DNA of 64,000 bases from Candidatus Nanoarchaeia archaeon (GCA_028713895.1 JAQTNH010000001.1:181808-245807), one strand, 5' to 3'. Counted from the stretch's first letter, positions 3,298 to 51,481 are shown. The notes: generated by a model not told the origin, from the sequence alone. Numbers and translations are program-made.

Positions 3298-3376
3298 AGA
3301 AAGGGCAAAATGATTTGATTTTATAAAAGTTATGTTTAGCTTCAGCATACATTTAGAAACTGTTAAATAGAATAAA

Positions 3377-15389: not shown

Positions 15390-15589
15390 TTTTCACTCTG
15401 AAAAAGTTTAAAAGGCAGTATCCTCTCAATTTAAGACAGGGAAATGTTGATGGTTGAGGTGGAAAAATGAATTCTAAGGGAGAGAGCAGACTAAATTTAA
15501 TTCTAAACAGGTTCGGAGCGTCAAAAGCATCCGCATCACTGAAGATTTTCCTCGCACTCATCATTTTCGGCATAGCGTCAGCTTTCCTC
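15390..15589. repeat. Copy 1 of a ~200-bp duplicated promoter plus signal-peptide module
   Basis: Near-identical to 21856..22054. It carries the TATA box, the Shine-Dalgarno site GAGGTGG, and a first 41 codons identical between the two giant genes. Confidence 0.9.
15406..15412 (+). promoter_or_regulatory. TATA box (TTTAAAA) of giant surface protein gene 1
   Basis: AAAGTTTAAAAGG lies 55 nt upstream of the ATG. GAGGTGG at 15456..15462 is the Shine-Dalgarno site. Confidence 0.5.
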
Positions 15590-21862: not shown

Positions 21863-22054
21863 CTAATAAAGTTTAAAAGGGAGCATGCTCTATTCTAAAG
21901 ACAGGGAAATGTTGATGGTTGAGGTGGAAAAATGAATTCTAAGGGAGAGAGCAGACTAAATTTGATTCTAAACAGGTTCGGAGCGTCAAAAGCATCCGCA
22001 TCACTGAAGATTTTCCTCGCACTCATCATTTTCGGCATAGCGTCAGCTTTCCTC
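21856..22054. repeat. Copy 2 of the duplicated promoter plus signal-peptide module
   Basis: See 15390..15589. The TATA box is at 21872..21878. Confidence 0.9.
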
Positions 22055-35819: not shown

Positions 35820-36473
35820 ATGAAGAATATGACAAACAAATACCTTTTTTTTGCTGAAAAACTGGACGAGCTTTCAGAATTGTGTAATGACAAAGCCCTG
35901 GAAATGGGGGCGCGCAGCAAAAATCTTGCGCATATACTGTTAAGGGAACAGACGCCAGAATTTTACAGAATCTTTGTTGACATGGCACGTCTGGGATACA
36001 AGTACTCAATACCAAGCAGCACAGGTATTCTACTGAATTTTGTGGGCACAAAAGCCAAGGACAAAATTGTGACTCACATAAACCCCCAAAAAGCAATTCC
36101 CTGCGCTTTATTTTGCAAGAGCTTAGAATGGAGACACATGGACTATTTTCTTAAAAAATTAAAATGCACCCCATACGGACATGAAACAGAAATTTACTAT
36201 GTCGGGGGCCCAGAGATTATGGAAGCAATTGGTATTGCTGTTGAGAAAGGAGGGCCTTCATGCGAAGAGCGTTTTAATGACGGCCACAGGCTCTGCTTTG
36301 ATGCGAATAATATTTACAAGCTTAACAAACAAGACTTTGTGGGTTACCTTATGGATATGGTTACAGAAAAGGGGAAACACAATTATTTTGAATTAAGAAA
36401 CGCGGCTTTCCAGGCAGCAGGCACGAAAGAGCTCGGGATAGAGGCTGCGATAGAACTGATGATGGAAGGATAG
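35820..36473 (+). CDS. ORFan operon gene 4 (217 aa)
   Basis: 12-nt gap. Confidence 0.5.
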   Translation: MKNMTNKYLFFAEKLDELSELCNDKALEMGARSKNLAHILLREQTPEFYRIFVDMARLGYKYSIPSSTGILLNFVGTKAKDKIVTHINPQKAIPCALFCKSLEWRHMDYFLKKLKCTPYGHETEIYYVGGPEIMEAIGIAVEKGGPSCEERFNDGHRLCFDANNIYKLNKQDFVGYLMDMVTEKGKHNYFELRNAAFQAAGTKELGIEAAIELMMEG

Positions 36474-36476
36474 GAT

Positions 36477-36791
36477 GTGATTTTAGATATGGGCAAAAAG
36501 ACTGCGCCAGAATGCGTAGAAATTGACATGGCAAAAGGGAACCAAAAAGAGATAGCTGCGCGCATTGGCAAACATTCTGAAAACGGAACGCTTGAGGTAA
36601 GGCTGCTGTTCCCGGATGTCTGGAACGCAGACACATACTGCCTGAGCGGAAGGCTTCCAATTCTAGAGAAACCGCCTGTGCATCTGCTGCTGTACAGCCT
36701 GGCCAGCAATTACAACCAATTGTACTCATGTTCATACAAAAGTGGGGACAGCCATGCTGTGCTTGAGCCCCTTATGAAAAAAGAGCGTTGA
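36477..36791 (+). CDS. ORFan operon gene 5 (104 aa)
   Basis: 3-nt gap. Confidence 0.45.
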   Translation: MILDMGKKTAPECVEIDMAKGNQKEIAARIGKHSENGTLEVRLLFPDVWNADTYCLSGRLPILEKPPVHLLLYSLASNYNQLYSCSYKSGDSHAVLEPLMKKER

Positions 36792-36800
36792 ATTGCTGTT

Positions 36801-37346
36801 TTAATCTTCTGTCGTATCCCCGATACAGCTTATAATCTCTATGCTGCCCTCTGCAATGGAGTTCATGCCCAGTAAAGGGATAACTTTTATTGTTTTTTTA
36901 TTGATAACCTGAAGTGAATAATCCGCATAAGGAAATTCCAGATAACCGGCTTGTTCAGACAGTTCCAATGCTTTAGCAAAATTTGGAAGCTGTATTTTAT
37001 ACTCCTTTTCAGAATCTGTTAATTCTTCAAGGAAGGGGCGATAAAAAAGAGTAAAACCATAGCTTATTTTTGATTTATATCCATGTTCAACAATTTCAGC
37101 AGAATATACTTGTACATAATGGTCATGTACTTGGCTCTCTATCTCCTCACGAGAACCCTTAACACTAAGGATATGCAGTTTTGGCGTTTCTTCCATAAAA
37201 GGAGCAAAAAATTCCTTATTGGCTTTTAGGTATTCACTAAAATCTGGCTTGTAGCCTGGATATCTCTCTTTTATTTTTTCCCTTATTGCTTCAATCCTCT
37301 TTTTTATGAAGTCTTTTACAAAAGTAGTATTTGTCATATCTAACAT
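36801..37346 (-). CDS. Conserved hypothetical protein, paralog A of 39976..40509 (C-terminal ISCIGDTTED)
   Basis: About 70% identity to the paralog on the opposite strand 2.6 kb away. Confidence 0.55.
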   Translation of the reverse strand: MLDMTNTTFVKDFIKKRIEAIREKIKERYPGYKPDFSEYLKANKEFFAPFMEETPKLHILSVKGSREEIESQVHDHYVQVYSAEIVEHGYKSKISYGFTLFYRPFLEELTDSEKEYKIQLPNFAKALELSEQAGYLEFPYADYSLQVINKKTIKVIPLLGMNSIAEGSIEIISCIGDTTED

Positions 37347-37420
37347 ATTGGAATAACCATTAATAAACTTATTTCACTGAAGAGGGGTTAACAAGTCAGT
37401 TAAACTTCGCTGAATTGCTG

Positions 37421-38209
37421 TTAATCGAAGTTTGAGAATACGAGTATGCTGCTCTCAGGATGTGAGTAACGAAGGTTCTTTTCTTTTAAAAAGTGCCCCC
37501 TGAGATAAGAATCCACAAACTGTTCAAGGGAATACCATGTTGCATCTTCTCCCTCGAAATGCTTGACTTTTTTGCCGAACTTAAACCGCAGGTCATAGGT
37601 GGTGATTGTGCCAGCCTCTTCAGTTTCAACAGACTCTTTCTTAGCCAGTGTTATTTCGCCTTTCAGGACATCATCAACATAGACCAAAATCTTATTTTTT
37701 TCGCTGATAGGTTCGACCTTTTTATTGGCGTAAAACTCTGAAAATGCATTTTTGCCCTTATGTTTTACAGCATCCAAAAAGTAATTCTCGGCTTCACTAG
37801 AAGAAGGCGCATTTTTGTGAGCCATCACTTTCTTCAGGCTGGGCATAAAATTTTCAGATGTCTTTACAATAGCATTCAAATCCCGTCCTCCAGTGACATG
37901 AGTCAATCTTAACTTTCCTGCTTTGGCTTTTTCTGCAAGCTTTATCAGCTTTTCCTCGTTTTTGGGACTAATTTTTTTATTGTAAGGCAGCCCTGGCTTT
38001 GGGCTGTCTTTCAACAAAGAAAAATACTGGTCAGAAGTCAACAGAAAGTCCAATGCATTATAATCAATGTCTGTCAGGGAGTCTTTGTATACATTGAGAC
38101 TGCGATACTCCTTGTTGAGATGGTACTCTTTCTGGATATCCCTAAATTTATCTGACTTTGGCTTTTTATCCAAAGGTACTCCAGTTACGTATTTTATTAT
38201 GTGTTCCAT
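37421..38209 (-). CDS. Hypothetical protein (262 aa from MEHIIKY)
   Basis: ORF 37421..38257 with a probable internal start. Confidence 0.45.
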   Translation of the reverse strand: MEHIIKYVTGVPLDKKPKSDKFRDIQKEYHLNKEYRSLNVYKDSLTDIDYNALDFLLTSDQYFSLLKDSPKPGLPYNKKISPKNEEKLIKLAEKAKAGKLRLTHVTGGRDLNAIVKTSENFMPSLKKVMAHKNAPSSSEAENYFLDAVKHKGKNAFSEFYANKKVEPISEKNKILVYVDDVLKGEITLAKKESVETEEAGTITTYDLRFKFGKKVKHFEGEDATWYSLEQFVDSYLRGHFLKEKNLRYSHPESSILVFSNFD

Positions 38210-38382
38210 GATATGTAGCCTAGCATATCGTGATTTATAAATCCAACTCGCCAGCAAAACTACGCTTATTTCTGTTAGAAGAAGTTCTTAGAAAAAAGCC
38301 TTAATCCTTAAACTTCAGAAGACTTTTAGGAATCGTGCCATAGCTCTTTGATTTACAGCTTCGTTAAATTTAAAAGCAAGTA

Positions 38383-38396
38383 TATACTGCAGGATA
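38383..38396 (+). promoter_or_regulatory. Palindromic box TATACTGCAGGATA (copy 2)
   Basis: Preceded by CGTTAAATTTAAAAGC (BRE/TATA). Here the GGTGGGGTTCT leader is replaced by GGTGCTATAAAG. Confidence 0.5.
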
Positions 38397-38410
38397 TAGG
38401 TGCTATAAAG

Positions 38411-38737
38411 ATGGGATACCTGAGGGTCATAACTGAATTGCATGCCAGGAGAGCAGGGCTTGTGCTGGAAGAAAGAGAACTGTTTGAAAACTTAGGCAGC
38501 TCTGTTGATATTGGACAAGCAGCAAAACGAGGAGCTTATTCTTTACAGATAACAGAAACCGTGCACAAAAGCGAATCAGGAAAAATAAGCATAGACGAGT
38601 TTGTGGACATCATAGACACCCAAAAATCTGCAATAGTGTTCAGCATGGAAGGCAGTAGAATCTTTGACAGGGCAGAAGCAGAAAGAACGATAGAGCAAGA
38701 GATTAAAAAGTATTTTGTGGATCCTTTAGTTCTTTGA
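38411..38737 (+). CDS. Hypothetical protein (109 aa)
   Basis: Start MGYLRV, 15 nt after the palindromic box. Confidence 0.45.
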   Translation: MGYLRVITELHARRAGLVLEERELFENLGSSVDIGQAAKRGAYSLQITETVHKSESGKISIDEFVDIIDTQKSAIVFSMEGSRIFDRAEAERTIEQEIKKYFVDPLVL

Positions 38738-38786
38738 GCGCTCTCGGGGCGAAAGATTTTTATCTGTATACAGTTTAGAAACCTGC

Positions 38787-39134
38787 ATGGAAACAACAAT
38801 GTGGATGATTTTGGGCGCAATAATTGTGATTGCCCTGATATACGCAGTTGTTTTGGTTCACAAAAACAAAAAACTGCTAAAGCCATGGACTGACGAAACA
38901 TGGATTGAATCAGGCGGAATGTTTCTTTTGATCGGGTATGTCCTTTCTTTGCTGGGCATTGAAATGAGCGTATTAATGGCTATTGGTTCAATTTACTTTG
39001 TAATCGGGTTTGTTAAAAAACATATTATAAAAGAGAAGAAACTGAATGAAAGGCAGAGAATGTATGCAACAATAGGAATAGCTGTATTGGTTGCGCTGTG
39101 TGTTATTATTTTCTTAATCTTTGTTGTCAAATAG
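38787..39134 (+). CDS. Membrane protein (3 TM)
   Basis: 115-aa hydrophobic ORF. Confidence 0.5.
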   Translation: METTMWMILGAIIVIALIYAVVLVHKNKKLLKPWTDETWIESGGMFLLIGYVLSLLGIEMSVLMAIGSIYFVIGFVKKHIIKEKKLNERQRMYATIGIAVLVALCVIIFLIFVVK

Positions 39135-39260
39135 AGTCATGAAACGCTTTCTGGCAAGTTCTTTTGAGTTCCAGCTCTCTCAGGGTAATTTATTGTCAAT
39201 ATTGAAGAAAAATAAAAGAAAAATAAGAAAAAAGTTGGGGAATGACTAAATTTGTTAAAA

Positions 39261-39356
39261 TTACTCTGTTTCTTCTTGTGTTTCTTCAGCTGCGTTCTCT
39301 GCTGGTGCTGCTTTTTCTTCTTCGTGCTTGTGTGCGCTCTTTTTTGGTCTTGCCAT
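39261..39356 (-). CDS. 31-aa micro-protein MARPKKSAHKHEEEKAAPAENAAEETQEETE
   Basis: Strong Shine-Dalgarno site AAGGAGGT 7 nt upstream of the ATG. The longer ORF-track version is rejected. Confidence 0.3.
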   Translation of the reverse strand: MARPKKSAHKHEEEKAAPAENAAEETQEETE

Positions 39357-39547
39357 GGTAGAACCTCCTTTGATTTGGGTTCGTGATTTCAGAAAAAGGG
39401 TATTAATACGCCTTTCGAAAGGTATATAGGGAGTTTTGGGGGCTAGGGGTGTGGTCGGGGTATTTGTTTTCAATATGGAAATTAAAGCAGAGAAAGGTTT
39501 ATAAGTGACTACTTGTTAGTAATGATTTAGTAGCGGGTGGACAAAAA

Positions 39548-39934
39548 ATGGGAAAACTGTCTGGAATACAAAAGATATTGGCGGAATCCTCTGATAAAGA
39601 GTTAAAAACAAGTTTAGCAAAAGGAAGGATAAAGATTCCAGGAGTAGAATTATCGGTAGATTTTGATGCAATGCTGGCGATAAAGGATATTAAATCCTTT
39701 TTAAAAAAGCCTCCAGAGGAATACTTGATATATATTTCTTGTCCGTCTTGTCCAAACCATGACATAGATTCATTCACATTAAGTTATAATTCAACATCAG
39801 ATACTTTAGAATACTTTTCGGAAGCAGATAAAGATTGTATTGATCTTGGTGAAAATGGATGCAAAAATTATAAGTCCTGCAAGATGGTTAAGCTGTACAA
39901 TGAGCTTAAGAAACAAGAAAGTTCTGAAAACTAA
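39548..39934 (+). CDS. Hypothetical protein (128 aa, Cys cluster CPSCPNH...C...C)
   Basis: ORF. Confidence 0.45.
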   Translation: MGKLSGIQKILAESSDKELKTSLAKGRIKIPGVELSVDFDAMLAIKDIKSFLKKPPEEYLIYISCPSCPNHDIDSFTLSYNSTSDTLEYFSEADKDCIDLGENGCKNYKSCKMVKLYNELKKQESSEN

Positions 39935-39975
39935 TTTTTTCTTAAAATGTTCGCTGAATATGGAGTGATGATAAA

Positions 39976-40509
39976 ATGAAAAAATCTGATACTACGTTTA
40001 TAAGAGAATTCATAAAAAAGAGAATCATAAGGATAAGAAAAGAAGTGAATGAAAGATATCCAAACTTTAAAACAGATTTTAGCGAATATTTGGCAGCCAA
40101 CAAGGAATTTTTTGCACCTTTCATGGAAGAGAAACCTGAGCTGCATACCCTCACTGTCAAAGGTTCTCGTGAGGAAATAGAAGACAAAGTTCGTGACCAC
40201 TACATACAAATGTATTCTGCTGAGATTGTGGAAGAAGGGCGCAAATCAAAAGTAAGCTATGGTTTCAGTCTGGTATATCGTCCTTTTATTGAAAGATTAA
40301 CAGACCCTGAAAAGGAGTATACAATTCAACTTCCAAACTTTACTAAAGCCATGGGGCTGTTGGATCATTTAAAATTTCCTTATGAGGATTATTCAGTTCA
40401 AGTCATCAAGAAAAAAACTATAAAGATTATTCCATTATTAGGCATAGAATCTCTTGCACAAGGAGGAATAGAAATTATAAGTTGTATCGGGGATACGACT
40501 GAAGATTAA
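39976..40509 (+). CDS. Conserved hypothetical protein, paralog B of 36801..37346
   Basis: Preceded by the repeat TTCTTAAAATGTTCGCTGAATAT. Confidence 0.55.
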   Translation: MKKSDTTFIREFIKKRIIRIRKEVNERYPNFKTDFSEYLAANKEFFAPFMEEKPELHTLTVKGSREEIEDKVRDHYIQMYSAEIVEEGRKSKVSYGFSLVYRPFIERLTDPEKEYTIQLPNFTKAMGLLDHLKFPYEDYSVQVIKKKTIKIIPLLGIESLAQGGIEIISCIGDTTED

Positions 40510-40706
40510 AAATGACTGTTAATTGCCTTAACCGATTTTTTATTTCAGTAATTCTTTTGGGTCCCAGCTCTCTTAGGGGCAGGTTTAAAGGGAATTCAGC
40601 GCAGGGTTTTTGAGTCGATTACTGGAAATAGTGGACAACACCCTAAATTTGATAAAGATAAACCCTCATTAGATTTTACTATTGCAAAAATTCGTGAGGT
40701 GATATT

Positions 40707-40940
40707 ATGGATCTTGCTATAAAATTCTGGAAAAACTGGCTTGAAGAAAAGAATCCAATGAAAAGATGGAGAATGATTGAAAAATTGCCTGTGGTTATAG
40801 AGATTACTGATTATATTGCACTCAACAAGATTTCTAAAAAAGAAAGATTAAGAACGTTTTCACCAACACTTGATTCGCTATTCGAAGATTTAAAAGATAC
40901 AATTTATAGCCTGGAGCTAAAGAAGAAGACAAGAAAATGA
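40707..40940 (+). CDS. Hypothetical protein (77 aa)
   Basis: ORF. Confidence 0.35.
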   Translation: MDLAIKFWKNWLEEKNPMKRWRMIEKLPVVIEITDYIALNKISKKERLRTFSPTLDSLFEDLKDTIYSLELKKKTRK

Positions 40941-41050
40941 AACGTAGCGCTGCAATAAAGAAGTCAATAAAAGGAGTTTTAATATGAATTGCATGATTGG
41001 TACAATTAAATGGACAAAAGGTATAAATAGATGTACTTATTAGTAAAATA

Positions 41051-41602
41051 GTGAACGGTATGGTACAACAGTTTAGATTATCCAAAGTTTCGGGAAAATT
41101 TATTGAGATACTTCTGTGGCTTATCGGGCTAAATCGCGAAGAAATCTATGTTTCAGAGCTAAGCAAGGAACTAAAAATGTCAAAGTCAACAGTCATAAAA
41201 TGGCTTGAGGAATTAACCAAATGGGAGCTTGTAACCGAACGAAAGCGCGGAAACATGCATTATTACAGGATAAATGGAGAAAACCCAATTATAAAGCAAT
41301 TCAAAATCCTGCAAAGCGTTTCTGAATTGACTCCGCTCATGAAAAGCTTGAAAGGTATGGCTGAAGTTTATTTGTTTGGCTCTTCAGCGCGAGGCGAGGA
41401 CAGGCCAGACAGTGATTATGACATTCTTGTTGTAACCAAACTTAATTCAAATGAAGTCTTTAAGAAACTTAAGAATGAGGACAGACTCAAAAACAGGAAA
41501 ATAAGCCTGCTTATAGTAAAACCCTTTGAATATGCAGACATGGCAAAACATGATCCTGCACTTTACCAAAGGATAGAAATAGACAAAATCAGGCTGGTAT
41601 AA
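41051..41602 (+). CDS. Minimal nucleotidyltransferase (MNT) with N-terminal wHTH
   Basis: NTase motif LFGSSARGEDRPDSDYDILVV. Confidence 0.75.
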   Translation: MNGMVQQFRLSKVSGKFIEILLWLIGLNREEIYVSELSKELKMSKSTVIKWLEELTKWELVTERKRGNMHYYRINGENPIIKQFKILQSVSELTPLMKSLKGMAEVYLFGSSARGEDRPDSDYDILVVTKLNSNEVFKKLKNEDRLKNRKISLLIVKPFEYADMAKHDPALYQRIEIDKIRLV

Positions 41603-42075
41603 TGGACATAAACGAAGCAAAAGATGAAGGACTAATAAGTGATTTGCCTAAAGAAGAAAATGTTACAGACATTGTTGAAAAAGAAATAAAGTCTGCAGAG
41701 TATGACTTAAGCGAAGCAAAAGAAGGGTTCAGCAAGGGCAAGACAAAATGGCCTGTAGTACAGGCCTATTATGTTATATTTCATGCTGCAAGAGCGCTGA
41801 TGTATAAGTTCAAGCTGAAGGAAATAAAGCATGAGGGAATAGTTGTTTTCCTGGAAGAGAGGGTAAAAGTCGGAAAACTGAGAAACGAGTTTGTGACAAT
41901 ATTCAAATCGCTTAAATCAACTAGGGAAGACTCAAACTATGACAGCGATTTCAGCGAAGAACGCGCAAGAAAATCAATAGAAAGCGCAGAAGAGTTTTTG
42001 AAAGAAATGAAGGCGCAGCTGAGCGAAAAAAAGGCCGGAAAAACCGGCAAACAGTTTGTTTTCTTGTTGTTGTAA
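41602..42075 (+). CDS. HEPN-domain protein, partner of the MNT (MNT-HEPN module)
   Basis: Start overlaps the MNT stop. The HEPN-like motif is TREDSNYD. Confidence 0.65.
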   Translation: MDINEAKDEGLISDLPKEENVTDIVEKEIKSAEYDLSEAKEGFSKGKTKWPVVQAYYVIFHAARALMYKFKLKEIKHEGIVVFLEERVKVGKLRNEFVTIFKSLKSTREDSNYDSDFSEERARKSIESAEEFLKEMKAQLSEKKAGKTGKQFVFLLL

Positions 42076-42159
42076 AAGTCCAATAATTCTTTGAGTTTAG
42101 GGCTCTTTGGGCAGGGTTTTTGGGCTAAAAAGGGCACGCACTTATAACGAACGCAAGAA

Positions 42160-42513
42160 TTATCTGTCCTTATACCCAAATTTTTTATTATATTTTGGAT
42201 GATCAATGATGTCTAAAACAAAAGCAATGATTTCTATTTCGCTTTCATTGTTTGTAAGAGTATAAAGCATGCGCCAAAAATTCGGGAGCTCTATCCTGAA
42301 AAGGTTTGTGATGCCATATTTTTGTTTGTACTCTTCAGGTATGAGCTTCTTGGCTATCGGGTCACCATAGTGAGGATTAGATTTCAGAAATTCTACTTTG
42401 TTGTTCAGAGCATTAAGAATTATCTTTTCTGTTTTTGAGCCAGGCGCCTGTTCATTGAGGTATTTGTAAACTTCCTCTGCTTCAGGCGAAAGTATGACCC
42501 TTATTATCTTCAT
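42160..42513 (-). CDS. RelE/YoeB-like toxin candidate
   Basis: 117-aa basic protein. The C-terminal IEIIAFVLDIIDH pattern resembles YoeB/Txe. It overlaps the upstream small gene by 4 nt. Confidence 0.4.
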   Translation of the reverse strand: MKIIRVILSPEAEEVYKYLNEQAPGSKTEKIILNALNNKVEFLKSNPHYGDPIAKKLIPEEYKQKYGITNLFRIELPNFWRMLYTLTNNESEIEIIAFVLDIIDHPKYNKKFGYKDR

Positions 42514-42788
42514 AGTTCCACACCTGCTGCAATTGCCCTCTTAAGGTTCTGATTTGTATTGTGTATCCATGTTATGCCTTTCATTGTAATCAATATTTTA
42601 TTGCTTTTTTCAAGATATTCAAGAATTATTTTAAGGGTGTTGTGATTAATCTGTTTGGGAAGCCTTCGCTTAAGTTCAGCTATTGTAATTGCGCTTTCAT
42701 CCATGTTTGTCAGGACATTTTCCACCATGAAGACAGTATTAAGAGTAGGTGAATGTTCCAATTTTTCCATTTGAACCTGTTTTGCCAT
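42510..42788 (-). CDS. Putative antitoxin / small DNA-binding protein
   Basis: Start MAKQVQM. It is coupled to the toxin-like gene. Confidence 0.35.
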   Translation of the reverse strand: MAKQVQMEKLEHSPTLNTVFMVENVLTNMDESAITIAELKRRLPKQINHNTLKIILEYLEKSNKILITMKGITWIHNTNQNLKRAIAAGVEL

Positions 42789-42920
42789 ATTTATCACTCC
42801 GTATCATTTAGTTATTAATAAATAAGTAATAGTTACTATTTTATATAGTTACTCTTCGTTTGAGGTTCCAGTAATTTCTTGAGTCCTGGGGGCACGCTTC
42901 GTTAACTTTAAAAACCAATA

Positions 42921-42934
42921 TATACTGCAGGATA
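42921..42934 (+). promoter_or_regulatory. Palindromic box TATACTGCAGGATA (copy 3)
   Basis: Flanked by the TATA box TTTAAAAA (42907) and the leader motif (42940). Confidence 0.5.
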
Positions 42935-42939
42935 TAAGT

Positions 42940-42950
42940 GGTGGGGTTCT
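42940..42950 (+). promoter_or_regulatory. GGTGGGGTTCT leader motif
   Basis: See the motif family. Confidence 0.55.
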
Positions 42951-42973
42951 AGAATTAAATAAGCTGATGTTAA

Positions 42974-43717
42974 ATGAAAATCAAATTTCATGGCGTATCA
43001 AACGGCTATGCTTACGAAAACCAAAATTTGGGGTGTATTTGTTTAGATGATAAAATCCTTTTAGACTGTGGCATAACAAGTTTTCCACGACCTTATTTTG
43101 ATAGCTTAGATGCATTATTTTTGTCTCATGGACATAAGGATCACATAGTTGGTATAAGCTCGCTTACATTGGGCTTAGCTGTTGAAACAGACAGAAAAAC
43201 AAGAAGGGATAGGGATTTTTGCATCTATGTTCCTGCAGGCATAAAAGACAAAATAGAAGACCGTATTGATAAAACATACAAAGACAAAGTAAAGATATTT
43301 GAAAAGAATCCAGGGGATAAATTCAGATTTTTGGATGAATATGACATAAAAACTGTCAAAGTAGAGCACAAGGGAGATTGTTTAGCATACAGATTTGAGA
43401 AGGATGGAAAAAGTTTTGTTTATACTGGCGATGCTGTACCTTCTCAAGAAGTAATTGACCTTTCAAAAAATGTTGATGTGCTGATACATGAAGCCAGCTT
43501 TGTAAATAAGTTTAGAGAAGTGGCAAATAGCTGGAAACACTCGACTTCTGAACAAGCAGCAGAGGTTGCACAAAAGTCTGGTGCAAAAACACTGATTTTA
43601 ACATTAATCTCACCTCATGTAAGGCTGAATAATATGGAAGAATACCTGACTGAAGCACAAAATGTCTTTCTTGGCAAAATTATTATTGCATACGAAGGCC
43701 TGGTTTATGAGTTATAG
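42974..43717 (+). CDS. Metallo-beta-lactamase-fold hydrolase
   Basis: HxHxDH motif (HGHKDHIVG) and downstream His/Asp residues. Confidence 0.8.
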   Translation: MKIKFHGVSNGYAYENQNLGCICLDDKILLDCGITSFPRPYFDSLDALFLSHGHKDHIVGISSLTLGLAVETDRKTRRDRDFCIYVPAGIKDKIEDRIDKTYKDKVKIFEKNPGDKFRFLDEYDIKTVKVEHKGDCLAYRFEKDGKSFVYTGDAVPSQEVIDLSKNVDVLIHEASFVNKFREVANSWKHSTSEQAAEVAQKSGAKTLILTLISPHVRLNNMEEYLTEAQNVFLGKIIIAYEGLVYEL

Positions 43718-43787
43718 TGATGCTGTTTGATAATCCAGTAATTCTTTGAGTCCTGGGGGCACGGTTCGTTAACTTTAAAAACGACTG

Positions 43788-43801
43788 TATACTGCAGAAT
43801 A
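43788..43801 (+). promoter_or_regulatory. Palindromic box TATACTGCAGAATA (copy 4)
   Basis: TATA box at 43774 and leader motif at 43808. Confidence 0.5.
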
Positions 43802-43807
43802 TAGGTT

Positions 43808-43818
43808 GGTGGGGTTCT
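43808..43818 (+). promoter_or_regulatory. GGTGGGGTTCT leader motif
   Basis: See the motif family. Confidence 0.55.
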
Positions 43819-43832
43819 AAGAGGGAAAATAA

Positions 43833-44258
43833 ATGAATGGTGATAAGATGGATTACAGGCTGCCTAACAGGTATGTTAAAGCTACAGACCACAACAAAGA
43901 ACTGGAAGTGAATATGGACGCGGAAAGAATTCTTAAAATATGGTGTTCTGGCTGCAGCAAAAATAAGAAATGCGATTACATGCCAACATTGGTTTCAATG
44001 ATTGGCGTCACTGAAGTTGATAAAGCAGACGAGGAAAATTTGATGGAAACTATAACATTCATATACAGGCCTGATATGGACAGCAGCAGAGCTCCCTTTT
44101 GCAAGAATGCAGACGAGAAATCGATTGTACGTTTTGAGGAAGCTTCTGAAAGATTACGCAAGGAAATCGAGCTTAAAGAAAATTACAAGCGATCCCAAAA
44201 AGATAAATATCTTGGCTTAGAGATTAAAATAATTGGAGACACAGTAAACGATGAGTAG
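43833..44258 (+). CDS. WCSGC-motif protein, paralog 1 (141 aa)
   Basis: Shares the YRLP..YV...WCSGC...C...C pattern with the next gene. Confidence 0.55.
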   Translation: MNGDKMDYRLPNRYVKATDHNKELEVNMDAERILKIWCSGCSKNKKCDYMPTLVSMIGVTEVDKADEENLMETITFIYRPDMDSSRAPFCKNADEKSIVRFEEASERLRKEIELKENYKRSQKDKYLGLEIKIIGDTVNDE

Positions 44259-44268
44259 GTGGGGTTCT
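44258..44268 (+). promoter_or_regulatory. GGTGGGGTTCT leader motif (starts at the stop codon of the previous gene)
   Basis: 13 nt upstream of the ATG at 44282. Confidence 0.5.
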
Positions 44269-44281
44269 TGGAGTGGGATAA

Positions 44282-44704
44282 ATGAGCAATGACAAAAAAA
44301 ATTACAGACTGCCTGAAGGGTATGTTGAAACTGACGGAGATTGGGGAGTAGACTATAAAACAGCAGTTAATGTGCTCAGGAACTGGTGTTCTGGCTGCAA
44401 GAAAAAGGAAGATGGAAATTGTGAAACTGTGATAGACCTTGTAGGTTTATTGAGTATGGAAGAAATCCCTGGCGTAGCTTATGAGTTCATGACACGAATC
44501 AAGCCTAAGAAGGGTGGAAGAAGCATTCTTTACTGCACAAAGGCTGACAGCCTATCAATTGCATATTTTGAGGAAAGGCAGAGGGACTTAGAAAGAGAAA
44601 AAAGAAAATTAAAGGCTGCTATCGATGAAGGCTTTGCCGAAGCAGAAAAAGAATTAGCAAAAGGAAGAGAGGCAAGACTAAGAAAGTTGGGATTAAAGAA
44701 ATAG
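44282..44704 (+). CDS. WCSGC-motif protein, paralog 2 (140 aa)
   Basis: Paralog of 43833..44258. Confidence 0.55.
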   Translation: MSNDKKNYRLPEGYVETDGDWGVDYKTAVNVLRNWCSGCKKKEDGNCETVIDLVGLLSMEEIPGVAYEFMTRIKPKKGGRSILYCTKADSLSIAYFEERQRDLEREKRKLKAAIDEGFAEAEKELAKGREARLRKLGLKK

Positions 44705-44721
44705 ATGGAGAGTGATGAAAG

Positions 44722-44976
44722 ATGGAAAAACCATATCAAATAAAACCATATCAAGTTTTACAAGAATATCAAAGTTTACACGAAGGAATCAAACCTTTAA
44801 AACATGCTTCGAAGTATGCCCCAATAGTAGTAGAACTGGGAGAAACTGTAACTTTAAGCAGTTTAGGCATAGACACTTCCAGTAGACTGGCGTTTCTATG
44901 CAGCTTGCCTTCAGATACGGTAATGCATACAGACAGAGATGGACATGTTACATGCACATTCTCTATAGAGAAATAA
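44722..44976 (+). CDS. Hypothetical protein (84 aa)
   Basis: ORF. Confidence 0.4.
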   Translation: MEKPYQIKPYQVLQEYQSLHEGIKPLKHASKYAPIVVELGETVTLSSLGIDTSSRLAFLCSLPSDTVMHTDRDGHVTCTFSIEK

Positions 44977-44998
44977 ACAAATCTTGAGAGGGATATAA

Positions 44999-45481
44999 AT
45001 GAACAAAACGCTAACTGAAATTTTAAAAAAGGACCCGAAGGATGTAACTATCCAAGAAAAAGAGTGTCTGGATTTAGAAGAAATCAGTAAGTTAGCTGAT
45101 AGATTTAATAAGCAGTACGAAAGTCTCATACAGCAAGCCAATGAGCCATACAAAGACAAGGAAAATGTAAGTTTGGTGTTCTGCGATGGAAAACTTGTTA
45201 AGGCTTACACTATGCAACGTTATGATATCCCTTTTGATGAGATTTCTAAAATTGAACAAGAACAGGGCAAAGCATGTTATGTAGTTGAGATGATAAACAA
45301 ACCGTCTGAAGACGACATCCGTATTTTTGAACCCCAAACAGGCATAAGAGACTCCTACAAAAACCTTAATGATGCATATAAAAAAATGGGTGACGATATG
45401 CATACTTTTGAGCAGGAATTGCGTGAAGGAATCAAAGAAGTGCGTAAGGAAGTTAAATCGCTTGAAAAGAAGCAAAAATAA
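44999..45481 (+). CDS. Hypothetical protein (160 aa)
   Basis: ORF. Confidence 0.5.
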   Translation: MNKTLTEILKKDPKDVTIQEKECLDLEEISKLADRFNKQYESLIQQANEPYKDKENVSLVFCDGKLVKAYTMQRYDIPFDEISKIEQEQGKACYVVEMINKPSEDDIRIFEPQTGIRDSYKNLNDAYKKMGDDMHTFEQELREGIKEVRKEVKSLEKKQK

Positions 45482-45525
45482 AATTTTCTTAAAATGTTCG
45501 CTGAATATACATTAAACGAAGTTTT

Positions 45526-45828
45526 TTAATGCGATTTTTGATGTTTTTTATGGTTTTTTTGAACCTTTATTATTACTTTGCTTGCTTTTCCTGCTTCCAA
45601 GGCTGGCAAAAGGTGCGACAGGAACTGTTCTGCAGTCATCTTTCGGACTGTGCCATTGGTGGTCTGAGTCCATTGGCCTTTGACTTTCTTGTATTTCTGT
45701 TTCCAGCCGCTTTTCTTGATAATGAGATAGATCGTGCATTCGTCGTTCTTCATGATTTTAGCTCGTGTTAGACACACACGTTTACTTGTTTTGACTCTGC
45801 TTGCAGGGACAATGTTTTTGCCTGGCAA
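45526..45828 (-). CDS. Hypothetical basic protein
   Basis: ORF. The real start may be the internal MKNDEC. Confidence 0.3.
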   Translation of the reverse strand: MPGKNIVPASRVKTSKRVCLTRAKIMKNDECTIYLIIKKSGWKQKYKKVKGQWTQTTNGTVRKMTAEQFLSHLLPALEAGKASKVIIKVQKNHKKHQKSH

Positions 45829-46127
45829 GTCCTGTTTGTGCAGTCTGAGTCATCATTGCAGTAATCAGTGCAAATTCCTATGCTTTCATTTGCTTTTTGA
45901 GTGCAAATGCCTTCAGCGAAATTCAGGCATTCAACATAGCATATCTGGCCTGAGCTGCATTCATCATTTATGTGGCATTCTCCTGGATTATGCACATAGA
46001 CATGGTGCTCAACAGCTGTGAAATTTGGCTTAACAATCATAACGAGAGCGACAAATGCAAGAACAATAACAGCAAAAAGAATGTTTCTAGAACAAAAGAT
46101 GCATTTGAAATCTAATTTTTTAGCCAT
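45768..46127 (-). CDS. Secreted Cys-rich small protein (signal anchor plus about 12 Cys)
   Basis: Start MAKKLDF preceded by GGAGGG. The mature part is NPGECHINDECSSGQICYVECLNFAEGICTQ...CTDYCNDDSDCTNRTC. Confidence 0.5.
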   Translation of the reverse strand: MAKKLDFKCIFCSRNILFAVIVLAFVALVMIVKPNFTAVEHHVYVHNPGECHINDECSSGQICYVECLNFAEGICTQKANESIGICTDYCNDDSDCTNRTCQAKTLSLQAESKQVNVCV

Positions 46128-46150
46128 AGTTATCCCTCCAAAACATCCTG

Positions 46151-46303
46151 TCAAAGCTTGAATCTTTTTGGCTTCTTTTCTGTTTCCTCTTCTAATACAA
46201 GAGCGCCTACATAGCCGCATTTATTACATTGGTATTGGCCAAAATTGCCGCCCATGTAGAGGTCTATCTCTTTTGAGCGGCATTTTGGGCACATCTTTGC
46301 CAT
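46151..46303 (-). CDS. 50-aa zinc-ribbon micro-protein (CPKC...CNKCGY)
   Basis: Not in the ORF track. The arrangement TAATATG couples it to the upstream gene. Confidence 0.45.
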   Translation of the reverse strand: MAKMCPKCRSKEIDLYMGGNFGQYQCNKCGYVGALVLEEETEKKPKRFKL

Positions 46304-46304
46304 A

Positions 46305-46544
46305 TTATTTGCAGCAATTGTTGTTGCAGCTGCAGTGGCCTTTCTTCATCAGTGCAAATGCTATCACTAGCAATGCAAGAATCCACCATGCGATGCCATC
46401 AAAGATGATTCCTTTTGTGTTAAGTATCCACACAAGCAAGCCTGCGAAGACAAGTCGCGCTAAAAAGCCGCCGTGGCAGCCGCAGCACATTCCTTGCCAG
46501 GACCACACCATCATTTTTGGTTCAATTTTTGATTTTTTTGCCAT
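46305..46544 (-). CDS. Small membrane protein with CCGCHGG and CSCNNNCC motifs
   Basis: Start MAKKSK preceded by GAGGTG. Two TM helices. Confidence 0.5.
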   Translation of the reverse strand: MAKKSKIEPKMMVWSWQGMCCGCHGGFLARLVFAGLLVWILNTKGIIFDGIAWWILALLVIAFALMKKGHCSCNNNCCK

Positions 46545-46587
46545 ATTTTTACACCTCAAAGTTTTAAGATTTGCTCGAATCTTTTAA

Positions 46588-46854
46588 TCATGATTCGCGT
46601 TCAATTTCGCGGGCTTTTGTTTTTACGTCTACTACAACTTCGCGCTCTTTGTTAAGCACGCCAGTAAATTCTTCCAAATGTTTTATGCCTATGTCTGCCT
46701 GGTTTTTTGCATCCTCAAGAAGCTTTAAATTGTTCTTTTCAATAGCGCGATCTATTATAGTTTTGATGGTTTTGAGATTATTTGCTGCTTTTTTAATCTC
46801 TTCAAAGCCTATTCCCTCAAGCGCCTGAAGGTTCTTTGGCAGTTCTTTTGGCAT
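46588..46854 (-). CDS. Hypothetical protein (88 aa, start MPKELPK)
   Basis: ORF-track call trimmed to the Shine-Dalgarno-supported start. Confidence 0.4.
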   Translation of the reverse strand: MPKELPKNLQALEGIGFEEIKKAANNLKTIKTIIDRAIEKNNLKLLEDAKNQADIGIKHLEEFTGVLNKEREVVVDVKTKAREIERES

Positions 46855-46858
46855 GTAA

Positions 46859-47575
46859 TCACCCTTTTTTAATTTTGTAGTATATTTTCTTTCCAATGGC
46901 TTCTTTTTCCAGGGCGCCCAGCTCTGCGAGCCTGTTCAGCCTGAATGAAGCTGTTGAACGGGATAAATTGATATAGTCAGCGAGCTGGTTTGCTGTGACG
47001 CGCTCCTGGCGGCCGACCCAGTCAATAACTTCCTTGTCCTTGATTGTGAGCTGGCTTATGTGAGTTATTGCGCTGTCCAGAGTCTGTGAGGAAACTCCTT
47101 TTTCAGCTATTTCGTCCTTTGTTCGCTGCAATAGGTCAAGTATAAAGTCTAATTTCTCTAAATCATTGAGTTTTTCAAGGCGATGGTCCATTGACTTAAG
47201 AACATGATTTAATTCCTCTAAAATCTGGGAATTTATGATTTTAACCTGTGATAAAGGATGCTGCTGCGCTGCCTTTATAGTGTCTTCCCACTGCTTTATT
47301 GCTATGTGCGAAGCTTCTTCCTGCAGCTTTAGCTTTGTTGGCTCGTGTTGAACAGTTGATTGGCGCTCCTGCCTTATTTTGGCTAAATCTGCCTCAAAAT
47401 CATGTTTTAAGTGTTCGTCAACAGGTTCGTCAGTTGTTGATTGCTGTTCAACAGAATTTTTTTGCTCGTCTAGAAGGTAGGGCCTAACTATTTTTTCAGA
47501 ATCCATCTTTTCTACCGGAAGGCTGTCTTCAGGCTTGCTGCTGAAAAGACGTTTTAAAGCGTCTAATATCCCCAT
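46859..47575 (-). CDS. Transcriptional regulator with C-terminal wHTH and N-terminal coiled coil
   Basis: The wHTH segment is LADYINLSRSTASFRLNRLAELGALEK. Confidence 0.6.
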   Translation of the reverse strand: MGILDALKRLFSSKPEDSLPVEKMDSEKIVRPYLLDEQKNSVEQQSTTDEPVDEHLKHDFEADLAKIRQERQSTVQHEPTKLKLQEEASHIAIKQWEDTIKAAQQHPLSQVKIINSQILEELNHVLKSMDHRLEKLNDLEKLDFILDLLQRTKDEIAEKGVSSQTLDSAITHISQLTIKDKEVIDWVGRQERVTANQLADYINLSRSTASFRLNRLAELGALEKEAIGKKIYYKIKKG

Positions 47576-47639
47576 TTCACCTGCTTTTTAAAGGCAAGGG
47601 ATGTTTATTAAGCTTTCTATGGCGCATTTTAGGGGTTCG

Positions 47640-47940
47640 CGCGCGAGCGCACCTGTTGGCGCAGTTCCAACACATCCAACACTTTAGTCAACAACTTCGA
47701 CACATTCGACACATCATCCAACACATTCGACAGTCAACACATCCAACACTTCCAACATATGTTGAACACATGCTTAATTTGCCTATTTTTTCCTTCAAAT
47801 TACGTGGTTTTAGTGTTCAACAGATTCGTCAAAAACCCAACAGATTCAACAGTCAACACATTCGACAGTCAACAAGTTCGACAACAAGTTCGACACATTC
47901 GTCAACAAGTTCGACAGATGGTCCAACACATAGATTAGAG
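47640..47940. repeat. Iteron-like degenerate direct-repeat array with a 9-bp inverted repeat
   Basis: More than 20 copies of short units (TTCGACAC/G, ATCCAACAC, GTCAACAC/AAG). The inverted pair is GTTGAACAC (47762) and GTGTTCAAC (47815). Confidence 0.6.
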
Positions 47941-48108
47941 CTGAAGTATAGTATTACATTATTATTCAATATTGAAATCAAATAAAGTGAGATGGGTTTT
48001 TAGGAGTAAAAAGAGAGGGTGGGCCTAAGTTGGTAAGAGGTGAGAATAAGGGGTCAAAAAGTGAGGGTTCTAAGAGAGATGTTTGAAAAGAAGGCAAAAA
48101 TGGCGAGA

Positions 48109-48456
48109 TTAACTGTTGTTTCGTTTAATTAAGTCTTCTACAATTAGTTTTGGGTCAATATCTTTGTTTTTCAGGCGAAACATGCGCATCCTGATTCCTG
48201 TTGACTCGTAAACGGCTTCTGGTTCGAGCATTTCCACAAAATTCTGGAGGTATTTGTCAATCAAGTAGCTTACTGCATAGGGTTTCAGGCTTGTATTCTT
48301 TGCTATTTTGCGTATCCAGACCCAAGCTTCCTGTGTTTTAAGGTATGCAAGCACCTTGAAAACCTTATGCATTGGGTCGCGTTCAGATGGCTGACGCTGC
48401 TTTCGAACTGACTTTAACTCGAATTCTTTGGCGCAGTGTGGACAAACGACCTTCAT
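48109..48456 (-). CDS. Zinc-ribbon (CPHC) plus wHTH-like small regulator (115 aa)
   Basis: Start MKVVCPHCAKEF with the Shine-Dalgarno site AGGTG. The ORF-track N-terminal extension is rejected. Confidence 0.5.
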   Translation of the reverse strand: MKVVCPHCAKEFELKSVRKQRQPSERDPMHKVFKVLAYLKTQEAWVWIRKIAKNTSLKPYAVSYLIDKYLQNFVEMLEPEAVYESTGIRMRMFRLKNKDIDPKLIVEDLIKRNNS

Positions 48457-48548
48457 ATTTACACCTGTAAAAAGATAAGAATATGGTAGAATATAAAGCT
48501 TATTATTAGTCAAATTGCCTAATAGCTGTGTTTTAATGCATTTTAGCG

Positions 48549-48851
48549 TTATCCAGTTGTTTTCATTACAGCTGTACAAACATGACTTACGCACTTGCAG
48601 GAACCTGCGCCGCAATCCATTGTTCCATTACTGCATTCCATTGTGCAAAAAGTATCCATACAATTTGGCGTTTGGTCAACTGGAACACAGGAAGTTGAAT
48701 GACAGCACTGGGCTTCAACGCAATCTAAATCTTCAGTGCATTCAGGCTGCTGGGCTTCGATTTGATTTAAAACAGGTTCGTACTTATTAAACAAAAGTAA
48801 GGCTGCAACCAAAGCAACCACGATTACAAAAAAAGCTAACCAAATTTTCAT
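48549..48851 (-). CDS. Secreted Cys-rich small protein, paralog of 45768..46127
   Basis: Signal anchor, then QQPECTEDLDCVEAQCCHSTSCVP...CKCVSHVC with about 16 Cys. Confidence 0.55.
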   Translation of the reverse strand: MKIWLAFFVIVVALVAALLLFNKYEPVLNQIEAQQPECTEDLDCVEAQCCHSTSCVPVDQTPNCMDTFCTMECSNGTMDCGAGSCKCVSHVCTAVMKTTG

Positions 48852-48883
48852 AATAAAAAAGAAACATTCAAAGAATAAAAAGA

Positions 48884-49336
48884 TTATGACGCAGAGGATT
48901 TACCCTGTTTTTCAGGCTTAAGCGATGGAAGCGGTATTGGCGAAGGAAGCCCTACTTTTGCTGCCTGTTCAATCGCTTCTATCTGGCTTTTATTCATTGC
49001 CGCGTTAAGTATCCCAACCATCAGTTTGGGCTCAAGTTTTTTATTCTTTTTCCATTCATCAACCACTTTGCTAATCTCGTCTTTAGTGTTCACATAAACT
49101 ATTTCGCCTTTAACCAAAATCTCTCCGAGGTTCTGGTCTTTTGGCTCTTTCAGTTCATATTTGACAGCATAAACAAAGTCTATTATGACGCCATTATTTT
49201 CCCTGCCAAAAGATTTAAGCTCGCGAACATCATCAATTTTAATGTCGTTTGAGCGTGCACTTGGCTTTATAATATCCGCTTTGATAATATTTCTAACCGC
49301 TTTGGTTTCTCTTAATGTAATATTAACAATTGGCAT
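48884..49336 (-). CDS. Hypothetical protein (150 aa)
   Basis: ORF. Confidence 0.45.
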   Translation of the reverse strand: MPIVNITLRETKAVRNIIKADIIKPSARSNDIKIDDVRELKSFGRENNGVIIDFVYAVKYELKEPKDQNLGEILVKGEIVYVNTKDEISKVVDEWKKNKKLEPKLMVGILNAAMNKSQIEAIEQAAKVGLPSPIPLPSLKPEKQGKSSAS

Positions 49337-50569: not shown

Positions 50570-51481
50570 ATGGAGACAAGCGCGGATGTCAAAAAAGTAA
50601 TCGGGCTGCTCAAGGGCAAAAAGAAGCTCATTGCAATGCTTGCGCCTTCCTTTGTTGTGGATTTCAAGTATCCTGACACAATTATCCTACTCAAACAAAT
50701 GGGGTTTGACAAGGTAAGCGAGCTGACATTTGGCGCGCGCATAATAAACAAATATTATCATGAAATAATCAAGAAAAATCCGGACACGATGTTCATAAGC
50801 ACTGCATGCCCGGTTGTCGCGATGATGGTGAAGTCGCAGTATCCGCAGTATGCGGGCAATCTCATGCCTGTTGTGTCTCCGATGGCTGCAACCGCGAGGA
50901 TTCTCGACAAAAATTATCCAAACCATGATATTGTGTTCATTGCGCCGTGCCCAGCAAAAAAAGAAGAGGCAAAAATCTACGGAAAGCTGATTGACGCGGT
51001 GATTACATACAAAGAACTGAAGCAGCTGATTGAATATGCCCAAGAAAACAAGATGATTAAGCCCAAAAAAGTCAAAAGCCATCTTTTTGACAGGTTCTAT
51101 GCAGACTACACGAAAATTTACCCGATATCAGGAGGTTTGTCAAAGACGCTTCATAAAAGAGACATACTGAAAGAAAATGAAGTAATCGTGCTGGAAGGGC
51201 CTGCTGAAATGCAGAAGCTGTTCAGCTCAAAGATTCCAAAACACATACGCTTCCTTGATGTGCTGTTCTGCAAGGGCGGATGCATCGGAGGGCCTGGAGT
51301 GAATTCCCAAGAGCCGATTGAAGCGCGGCGCGCGAAAGTGCTCAGCTATCTTGAGCTGGCAAAACATGAGAAGATGGGCAAGAGGCGCGGGATGATTAAG
51401 GACACTGAAGGCGTTGAGTTCAACACGCCAAAAAAATACATAGGCAACAAGTGCTTTACAGAATGCGAAAGGGATTTTTAA
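50570..51481 (+). CDS. [FeFe]-hydrogenase-like H-domain protein (Fe_hyd_lg_C, Nar1/HydA-like)
   Basis: Motifs ISTACPVVA (L1-like, only one Cys), IAPCPAKKEE (L2, MPCxxKxxE) and FCKGGCIGGPG (L3). There are no N-terminal ferredoxin domains. Confidence 0.55.
   Translation: METSADVKKVIGLLKGKKKLIAMLAPSFVVDFKYPDTIILLKQMGFDKVSELTFGARIINKYYHEIIKKNPDTMFISTACPVVAMMVKSQYPQYAGNLMPVVSPMAATARILDKNYPNHDIVFIAPCPAKKEEAKIYGKLIDAVITYKELKQLIEYAQENKMIKPKKVKSHLFDRFYADYTKIYPISGGLSKTLHKRDILKENEVIVLEGPAEMQKLFSSKIPKHIRFLDVLFCKGGCIGGPGVNSQEPIEARRAKVLSYLELAKHEKMGKRRGMIKDTEGVEFNTPKKYIGNKCFTECERDF

Follow-up and report, generated by a model that had tools for sequence, protein, structure and literature searches.

Small extracellular domains dominated by cysteine, such as the EGF-like, WAP four-disulfide core and antistasin/TIL domains of metazoan proteins, carry 6-8 cysteines and are used singly, in tandem or as accessory modules. 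DPANN archaea, whose genomes are tiny and which rely on contact with other cells, display surface proteins of which most are unannotated. In a different functional context, MerF-type small mercury transporters have two transmembrane (TM) helices and vicinal cysteine pairs on the cytoplasmic side. Here we analysed a stretch of 64,000 nucleotides (nt), referred to as the window, from a Candidatus Nanoarchaeia (DPANN) metagenome-assembled genome, and within it a region that encodes two small cysteine-rich proteins, P_B and P_A, both of them NCBI 'hypothetical protein' entries with PHC66_ locus tags on a 956-kb contig, together with an operon led by a MarR-like winged helix-turn-helix (wHTH) regulator. 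An earlier note on this DNA had presented the region as one cluster of paralogous and possibly toxic mini-proteins. Our results favour a different model, to which we assign a probability of roughly 0.6, namely that three independent items lie side by side: a surface binding module (P_B), a strain-specific orphan (P_A) and a lineage-specific operon.

Both open reading frames (ORFs) lie on the minus strand at the coordinates first given, and both encode small, signal-anchored, cysteine-rich proteins with an N-terminal hydrophobic 19-mer (Kyte-Doolittle 2.8 in P_A and 3.1 in P_B). Where 12-16 cysteines had been announced, each protein has 12, the low end of that range; all 12 fall within the ectodomain of P_B, while P_A has 10 in its ectodomain and 2 before the TM segment. 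Both proteins are probably displayed outside the cell. Cysteine-richness alone is not evidence of a gene here, because the window contains about 70 stop-to-stop segments with at least 8 cysteines, nearly all of them in non-coding frames of other genes.

The 12-cysteine family of P_B

P_B (100 amino acids (aa); 48549-48851, minus strand) is identical to PHC66_01055, a 'hypothetical protein' of Candidatus Nanoarchaeia archaeon. Its ORF, the N-termini of its homologs and an AlphaFold2 model point to a type II signal-anchored surface protein, and the family profile places its 12-cysteine domain at residues ~36-97 (48561-48746, minus strand). An indexed search returned four close homologs (50-73% identity) that keep both the cysteine pattern and the N-terminus, which begins MKIW and supports the start site in question. 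A profile built from the ectodomains of five close homologs (alignment A2) and searched against 1.84 billion representatives matched 703 clusters (E<=1e-3), 379 of which also pass E<=1e-10, with independent members scoring E=1e-15 to 1e-30 per single domain, and the conservation of the cysteine pattern, whose absence from all homologs the earlier note had named as a refutation, is borne out for P_B. Being conserved in 703 clusters, P_B is certainly a gene, its codon score of -0.19 notwithstanding.

The family consensus reads ECxxDxDCVPAxCCHPxSCVxxxxAPDCxxxxCTxECxPGT(L/M)DCG(Q/A)GxCxCxxGxCxA, and P_B conforms to it with a cysteine at 12 of 12 columns, the stretch CCHSTSC and the loop GTMDCGAG. 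Across 248 domain copies, the 12 conserved cysteine columns are accompanied by His19 (96%), Asp47 (98%) and Pro30 (92%). The architecture of the family was counted on 157 retrieved proteins, 146 of which have a single copy of the domain and the rest 2-7, with HMMER giving up to 10 matched stretches in one of them (P0011). In single-domain proteins the median number of residues C-terminal to the domain is 0, and a hydrophobic 19-mer lies N-terminal to it in 134 of the 157, a layout shared by P_B, in which this segment covers residues 3-21 and the domain ends 3 residues before the stop. Several members carry lipobox-like LAGC or VSGC signals. Fusion partners, which are of extracytoplasmic or surface type, comprise an alpha/beta-hydrolase (in a lipoprotein), TIR and PEGA (arranged as TIR-TM-PEGA) and desulfoferrodoxin-like domains among ten members scanned; a scan of 55 longer members adds DUF333, present in 11 of them, and single cases of chagasin I42, PKD and Big_2. 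DUF333 (PF03891), which stands N-terminal to the 12-cysteine domain in those 11 proteins, is likewise a small cysteine-containing extracytoplasmic module; it is nevertheless a separate domain of 47 residues, with 4 cysteines in the copy at one locus (L062), is absent from P_B and, having no established function itself, allows no functional transfer.

No Pfam model covers the 12-cysteine domain in the scanned members (75: P_B, ten members, 55 longer ones and ten more, all within the 55), no NCBIfam match was obtained for the members tried, and a PDB sequence search was also empty. A literature search on DPANN cysteine-rich surface proteins and on DUF333 returned nothing relevant, most DUF333 results concerning DUF333x families. 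Judged by sequence, therefore, the P_B-type family, being absent from Pfam, NCBIfam and PDB, is an uncurated family of a familiar kind of domain. Like the EGF-like, WAP and antistasin/TIL domains, the P_B domain is ~60 residues long, dominated by cysteine, apparently extracellular and used singly, in tandem or as an accessory module, but it differs from them in its 12 cysteines, in its archaeal and myxobacterial hosts and in the lack of any sequence or Foldseek match. The 'EGF/defensin-like' spacing of the earlier note could accordingly not be upheld: neither P_A nor P_B matches any Pfam, NCBIfam or PDB family above threshold, and among Pfam models, EGF-like, defensin and cystine-knot families included, P_B has 0 families at E<=0.1 and the best match of P_A is CarbpepA_inh with 15.1 bits against a cut-off of 25. 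The N-terminal half of the P_B domain, C-x2-D-x-D-C-x4-CC-x4-C, does appear to resemble the CxxDxDC...CC...C stretch of WAP domains. As a compact and confidently modelled domain, with six putative disulfides, that occurs in many DPANN lineages and often in housekeeping blocks, it is a new family to curate.

Cysteine pairing and predicted fold

Among the non-identical domain copies, 246 of 248 hold 10 or 12 of the 12 cysteines, and counted by sequence the missing ones vanish in fixed pairs: C1 and C11 are lost together 15 times and alone once, C5 and C10 together 12 times, C3 and C6 together 5 times and C8 and C9 together 3 times, the latter three pairs never losing one partner alone (Fisher p 4e-7 to 4e-23). 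This paired loss argues for disulfides rather than Cys4 metal sites, and the P_B domain may thus carry six disulfides. The four pairs so deduced differ from the WAP connectivity. Heme binding through the CCH motif was also considered and ruled out, since the sequence has no CxxCH.

AlphaFold2, run with an 83-sequence alignment, modelled P_B with a predicted local distance difference test (pLDDT) score of 94 and a predicted template-modelling (pTM) score of 0.68. In the predicted structure, residues 2-33, TM segment included, make up a single helix; the small domain that comes after it has short strands and, at the C-terminus, a hairpin. A Foldseek search with this model, a method that is weak on small disulfide-rich folds, gave a best PDB match of E=4.2 with TM-scores of at most 0.22 and nothing below E=2.7 in BFVD.

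P_A, a strain-specific orphan in a variable slot

P_A (119 aa; 45768-46127, minus strand, from its ORF and gene calls) has a TM segment at residues ~16-34 and an 87-residue ectodomain with 10 cysteines. Its ATG at 46127, used by the callers of three independent assemblies, whose calls also agree on the starts of the 50-, 79-, 88- and 238-aa proteins of the operon, lies 23 nt past the stop of the zinc-ribbon gene and has GGAGG 7 nt upstream; an alternative start at 46220, giving 150 aa, would overlap the zinc-ribbon gene. The supposed paralogy of P_A and P_B does not hold. BLASTP aligns the two over only 12 residues at E=0.26 and hhalign gives the P_A ectodomain a probability of 0.7% against the P_B family profile, which together rule out P_A as a P_B paralog, and a six-frame hmmsearch of the window with the 12-cysteine profile matches only 48552-48899, outside P_A. 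Moreover, P_A found only itself among 5.8 billion clusters, no homolog in GTDB genomes or viral contigs, and noise only in a PDB sequence search. Two of its stretches of the CxxDxxC type, GECHINDECSSGQIC and YCNDDSDCTNRTC, weakly match the 22-residue repeat model TIGR04201 Myxo_Cys_RPT, which describes a cysteine-rich repeat in proteins of myxobacteria (E=0.014, 15.5 bits), but the curated cut-off, 25 bits, is not reached and P_A is without a detectable relative.

A comparison with related loci shows where P_A comes in. Three relatives (L001-L003) match the window at 83-89% identity over the length of the operon, and L001, the only one long enough, also spans P_B. Their alignments all end at window position 46131, 4 nt before the P_A ATG: homology holds through the zinc-ribbon stop and the common TTTTGGAGG(G/T)ATA, and the sequences then diverge at the start codon. 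Past this breakpoint the window has P_A, and the relatives have an unrelated 65-aa ORF without cysteine. The best explanation of this pattern is that P_A is a strain-specific orphan surface protein placed behind a ribosome-binding site that drives another ORF in sister strains, and we take P_A to be a probable, though unproven, gene whose anchored product would expose an ectodomain containing 10 cysteines. The idea of a functional cluster fails on this ground, as P_A is missing from otherwise syntenic relatives, and on a second one, as genes of the P_B family elsewhere stand in varied and mostly housekeeping neighbourhoods.

From P_A downstream, at ~36000-46130 of the window, the guanine-plus-cytosine (GC) content is 0.36-0.38, compared with 0.44-0.47 elsewhere, and this stretch looks like a strain-variable island with P_A at its boundary. 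The NCBI assembly has a contig of its own for the segment that starts at the membrane-protein gene (~46544) and extends 7.6 kb into the island, as expected from a strain-variable region. The exact swap of one ORF for another behind a common ribosome-binding site is a small but clear-cut case of a variable slot for genes where an island has its boundary.

The lineage-specific MarR-like operon

The third item is an operon of four minus-strand genes, encoding the MarR-like regulator, an 88-aa protein, a 78/79-aa membrane protein and a 50-aa zinc-ribbon protein, which is conserved in three relatives (L001, L002 and L004); a further one (L003) has the same DNA with the 50-aa gene uncalled. The first gene (46859-47575, 238 aa) encodes the wHTH regulator that the earlier note had recognised, with PF12802 MarR_2 at 29.8 bits against a cut-off of 27 and PF09339 at 24.5 against 22, the helix-turn-helix lying at residues ~175-226. 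The 88-aa gene (46588-46854), called with this length in L001-L004 and in L086, begins 4 nt past the stop codon of the MarR-like gene, and its charged product matches no Pfam or NCBIfam family. The membrane-protein gene (46305-46544) and the 50-aa gene with its CPxC...CxxC arrangement (46151-46303) are joined by the TAA-T-ATG junction noted before.

The 79-aa protein has two hydrophobic spans and contains both motifs that had been pointed out, CCGCHGG and CSCNNNCC, which are largely conserved in its three homologs. More precisely, MCCGCHGG stands before span 1 and HCSCNNNCCK after span 2, the conserved forms being MC..(C/G)HGG and HCxCxNNCCK. Those three homologs, at 71-84% identity, were the only ones among 5.8 billion clusters, and a metagenome scan for a wider family gave only an already known contig. 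Searches of Pfam, NCBIfam (with the 84%-identical homolog P0007), PADLOC and PDB gave no match, the PDB profile search returning noise. Both ends of the protein are Lys-rich, so that by the positive-inside rule both Cys/His clusters would be cytoplasmic. The 50-aa protein carries CPKC-x18-CNKC and differs by one residue from the copy in L001; 11 zinc-ribbon Pfam models match it, all below their cut-offs, and the best of these is Zn_ribbon_IS1595 (E=3.4e-4, 21 bits against 25.4).

In several respects the 79-aa protein recalls MerF, as it has ~80 residues, two spans, vicinal CC clusters before span 1 and at the C-terminus, both apparently cytoplasmic, and a wHTH regulator in its operon. It differs in having no Pfam match at E<=0.1, MerF included, and in belonging to a family confined to a few close relatives, and no mer genes (mercuric reductase, merA or merP-like) occur among the scanned neighbours of its gene, so that it was not assigned to MerF. 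Here we tentatively speculate that the 79-aa protein might be a small metal-binding membrane module acting with the coupled zinc ribbon: its two Cys/His clusters would probably bind metal in the cytoplasm, perhaps together with the zinc ribbon. Metal binding, one of the options in the earlier note, is unlikely for P_B, given the loss of its cysteines in fixed pairs; for the zinc ribbon and the membrane protein it is plausible.

Function of the P_B domain and competing explanations

Given its architecture, P_B is most likely a rigid extracellular recognition or binding module. In this model, the N-terminal signal anchor would insert P_B in the membrane as a small type II protein, with the ~60-residue domain, presumably locked by six disulfides, sitting just outside the cell, and a putative binding site might be formed by the conserved patch of His, Asp, Thr and the Gly-containing loop. 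Evolution appears to have put the domain to several uses: it can stand alone as an anchored knob, form tandem arrays or serve surface enzymes and adhesin-like proteins as a C-terminal module. Thus, among the functions proposed in the earlier note, an adhesion or binding module fits P_B best, in agreement with the tandem arrays and with its place as a C-terminal module of surface enzymes.

The distribution of the family is broad. A scan of GTDB, with one genome per species, found a relative in 204 genomes, and the best 80 of these provide the taxon breakdown and the neighbourhood data given here. They include DPANN hosts from the Woese-, Pace-, Nano-, Nanohalo-, Undin-, Micr-, Aenigmat- and Altiarchaeota, Methanoregula and other Methanomicrobiales, and Myxococcota including the cultured Nannocystis and Enhygromyxa. 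The DPANN loci form at least three housekeeping synteny groups, in which the family gene stands between UPF0047 and an AAA_18 kinase followed by NFACT, between RNase J and Peptidase_S8 followed by Pop5, or between GatD and VIT1. No universal neighbour was found in the 80 loci; two seemingly common neighbour clusters (1 and 2) turned out to be other-frame or antisense ORFs of the family gene itself. ABC transporters (ABC_tran) account for 2 of the 207 neighbour ORFs. Two loci, L010 (CAZXME010000078.1) and L014 (CAYWLA010000029.1), are tagged 'uncultured Methanosarcinales archaeon' yet have ~30% GC and the same UPF0047/12-Cys/AAA_18 kinase/NFACT synteny as Woesearchaeota, and are probably mis-binned DPANN sequence.

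Several points weigh against the model of three independent items as set out above. Every named family member is a 'hypothetical protein', and no annotated relative or experiment gives a function. The paired cysteine losses tally sequences, not independent evolutionary events, and no pairing can be assigned to C2, C4, C7 and C12, because these are essentially invariant in the family. The hosts include strict anaerobes, in which extracellular disulfide formation is not assured, and the domain may still be distantly linked to a known fold, as an empty Foldseek search carries little weight where small disulfide-rich domains are concerned. P_A comes from one population only and has a weak codon score (0.006), and for the 79-aa protein both topology and metal binding are deduced from its charge distribution and motifs only. 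Finally, the tight coupling to Peptidase_S8 in ~9 DPANN loci and one chagasin fusion would fit a protease-related role, more specific than general binding.

This last point leads to the main alternative for P_B, that the domain is a protease partner, serving as inhibitor, chaperone or tether of secreted subtilases and shielding the cell's own surface, in which case it would resemble small disulfide-rich inhibitors. A ~1000-aa subtilase (Peptidase_S8) is the only recurring extracellular partner of the family, and in ~9 DPANN loci (L013, L015, L016, L022, L029, L048, L051, L062 and L072) the family gene abuts it or overlaps it by a few nt; the one inspected closely, L062, encodes a subtilase that combines an I9 propeptide with a CUB-like domain, and a DUF333-like N-terminal module is found in the family member there. 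In addition, an S8 gene stands immediately upstream of the family gene in a Myxococcota locus (L054), a chagasin I42 inhibitor domain is fused to one member, and the genome of the window itself encodes an 1889-aa S8 protein (21932-27601). However, the nine DPANN loci belong to one synteny group and are not independent, the closest relatives of that group (L024 and L036) have no S8 gene, P_B lies 21 kb from the subtilase of the window, most of the 80 loci are without a protease neighbour, and searches of Pfam and PDB linked the family to no inhibitor family. On balance we regard a protease partner as unlikely, although it is the alternative that survives best. A bolder proposal, which we hold to be just as unlikely, is that the 12-cysteine 'CCH' domain could be a new fold with a specific surface job in ultra-small episymbiotic archaea, where it might dock to or control the large secreted subtilases that some DPANN lineages co-transcribe with it, or act as a contact module for host attachment. 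If this were true, its presence in Methanomicrobiales, which are possible hosts, and in Myxococcota would reflect inter-domain transfer of a surface-interaction module.

For P_A, the alternative is that it is non-functional, either a chance ORF or a decaying remnant at the island boundary. It has no homolog anywhere searched, cysteine-rich ORFs are common in non-coding frames here, its codon score lies below the 5th percentile of coding windows (0.10), and a single-sequence AlphaFold2 model reached a pLDDT of 60, is not usable and was for that reason not taken to a fold search. On the other hand, the GGAGG upstream of its ATG is common to the relatives, and of its six frames the one that encodes P_A has the highest codon score, which exceeds the non-coding 95th percentile (-0.038); P_B, a proven gene, scores lower still. 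The clean TM segment, the even number of ectodomain cysteines and the calls in three assemblies also speak for a gene, and we consider a non-functional P_A doubtful, slightly more so than a protease-partner role for P_B.

Less probable again is a metal-binding or redox domain in P_B, in which cysteine and histidine would ligate Zn, Fe-S or another metal instead of forming disulfides. Such a role would suit a 60-residue domain with 12 cysteines and an almost unvarying His and Asp, and many of the hosts are strict anaerobes. The cysteines, however, vanish two at a time with the other ten kept, when those of Cys4 sites would be expected to go as quartets; the domain follows signal anchors or lipoprotein-like signals, occurs also in aerobic Myxococcota (Nannocystis and Enhygromyxa) and shows neither CxxCH nor ferredoxin-type spacing.

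The weakest candidate, which sees in P_A, P_B or both secreted toxins or peptides of the bacteriocin/archaeocin type with a regulator and accessory genes, can draw on their small size, cysteine content and export, on the location of the strain-specific P_A, bordering an island that carries toxin-antitoxin-type genes, and on a non-significant match of the P_A ectodomain to the antimicrobial peptide LEAP-2 (E=0.39), but it is highly improbable, as the hydrophobic segments of 19-20 residues show no obvious cleavage site and residues 2-33 of P_B are modelled as one helix, so that the proteins are probably anchored, as no immunity, ABC-export, protease or modification gene stands beside P_A or P_B, nor do immunity, ABC-export or modification genes recur in the 80 related loci, as the MarR-like, 88-aa, membrane, zinc-ribbon, 115-aa and 150-aa neighbours, among which immunity or transport genes were looked for, have no transporter or peptidase domains, as P_B orthologs stand among housekeeping genes in many lineages and the family was not found in PHROGs, PADLOC or viral contigs, and as the operon is present without P_A in relatives. 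A mobile element or defence system was rejected as well, since PHROGs and PADLOC match only generic wHTH and metallo-hydrolase models. The tempting reading of the region as a toxin cluster is thus cleared away as unsupported.

Neighbouring genes, spacer array and island

All genes of the P_B/P_A region are on the minus strand, and the order of transcription runs from a 150-aa gene through P_B to P_A. The 150-aa gene (48884-49336) lies directly upstream of P_B with a 32-nt gap and is conserved in L001 at 3205-3660; it has no Pfam or NCBIfam match above threshold and no recognisable family. Downstream of P_B is a 115-aa gene with an N-terminal CxxC (48109-48456, with its ATG at 48456), which is called as 115 aa in L001 and L086 and has weak Pfam matches only, no family reaching its threshold.

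Between the 115-aa gene and the MarR-like gene lies a repeat-rich spacer of 530 nt (~47580-48108), upstream of the operon and wholly within a block that is 83% identical in L001. It contains an array of one-stranded YCRACA hexamers (TCGACA, TCAACA and CCAACA; 47654-47928, plus strand) with 24 matches in 275 nt, compared with ~2.6 per kb elsewhere in the window. The hexamers are spaced by 7, 9 or 12 nt, in two blocks that flank an inverted repeat, I1 (47757-47769 / 47813-47825). The array may be an operator array or iteron-like repeats; Rfam gave no match in the spacer. On the plus strand, a 109-aa low-complexity ORF (47656-47985) is kept in the window and in L001, and is uncalled in L001 and L086.

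The island contains a nucleotidyltransferase/HEPN pair (41051-42075), a RelE-like pair (42160-42797) and a metallo-beta-lactamase-fold protein with a precomputed match to the anti-Pycsar Apyc1 family (42974-43717). It also holds two sets of paralogs, one of 181 and 177 aa with 71% identity (E=1e-82; 36801-37346, minus strand, and 39976-40509, plus strand) and one in tandem of 141 and 140 aa with 29% identity and a common WCSGC motif (E=2e-13; 43833-44258 and 44282-44704, plus strand).

Elsewhere in the window, a 2119-aa protein with beta-helix and Ig-like domains (15467-21826, plus strand) adjoins the subtilase gene, whose 1889-aa product (21932-27601, plus strand) combines Peptidase_S8 with Ig-like domains; the two are probably major surface proteins of this small genome. 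A 303-aa protein (50570-51481, plus strand) is conserved in L001, and of the Fe-hydrogenase large subunit its ortholog has the C-terminal domain (PF02906) alone, a stand-alone form that is odd for a DPANN genome.

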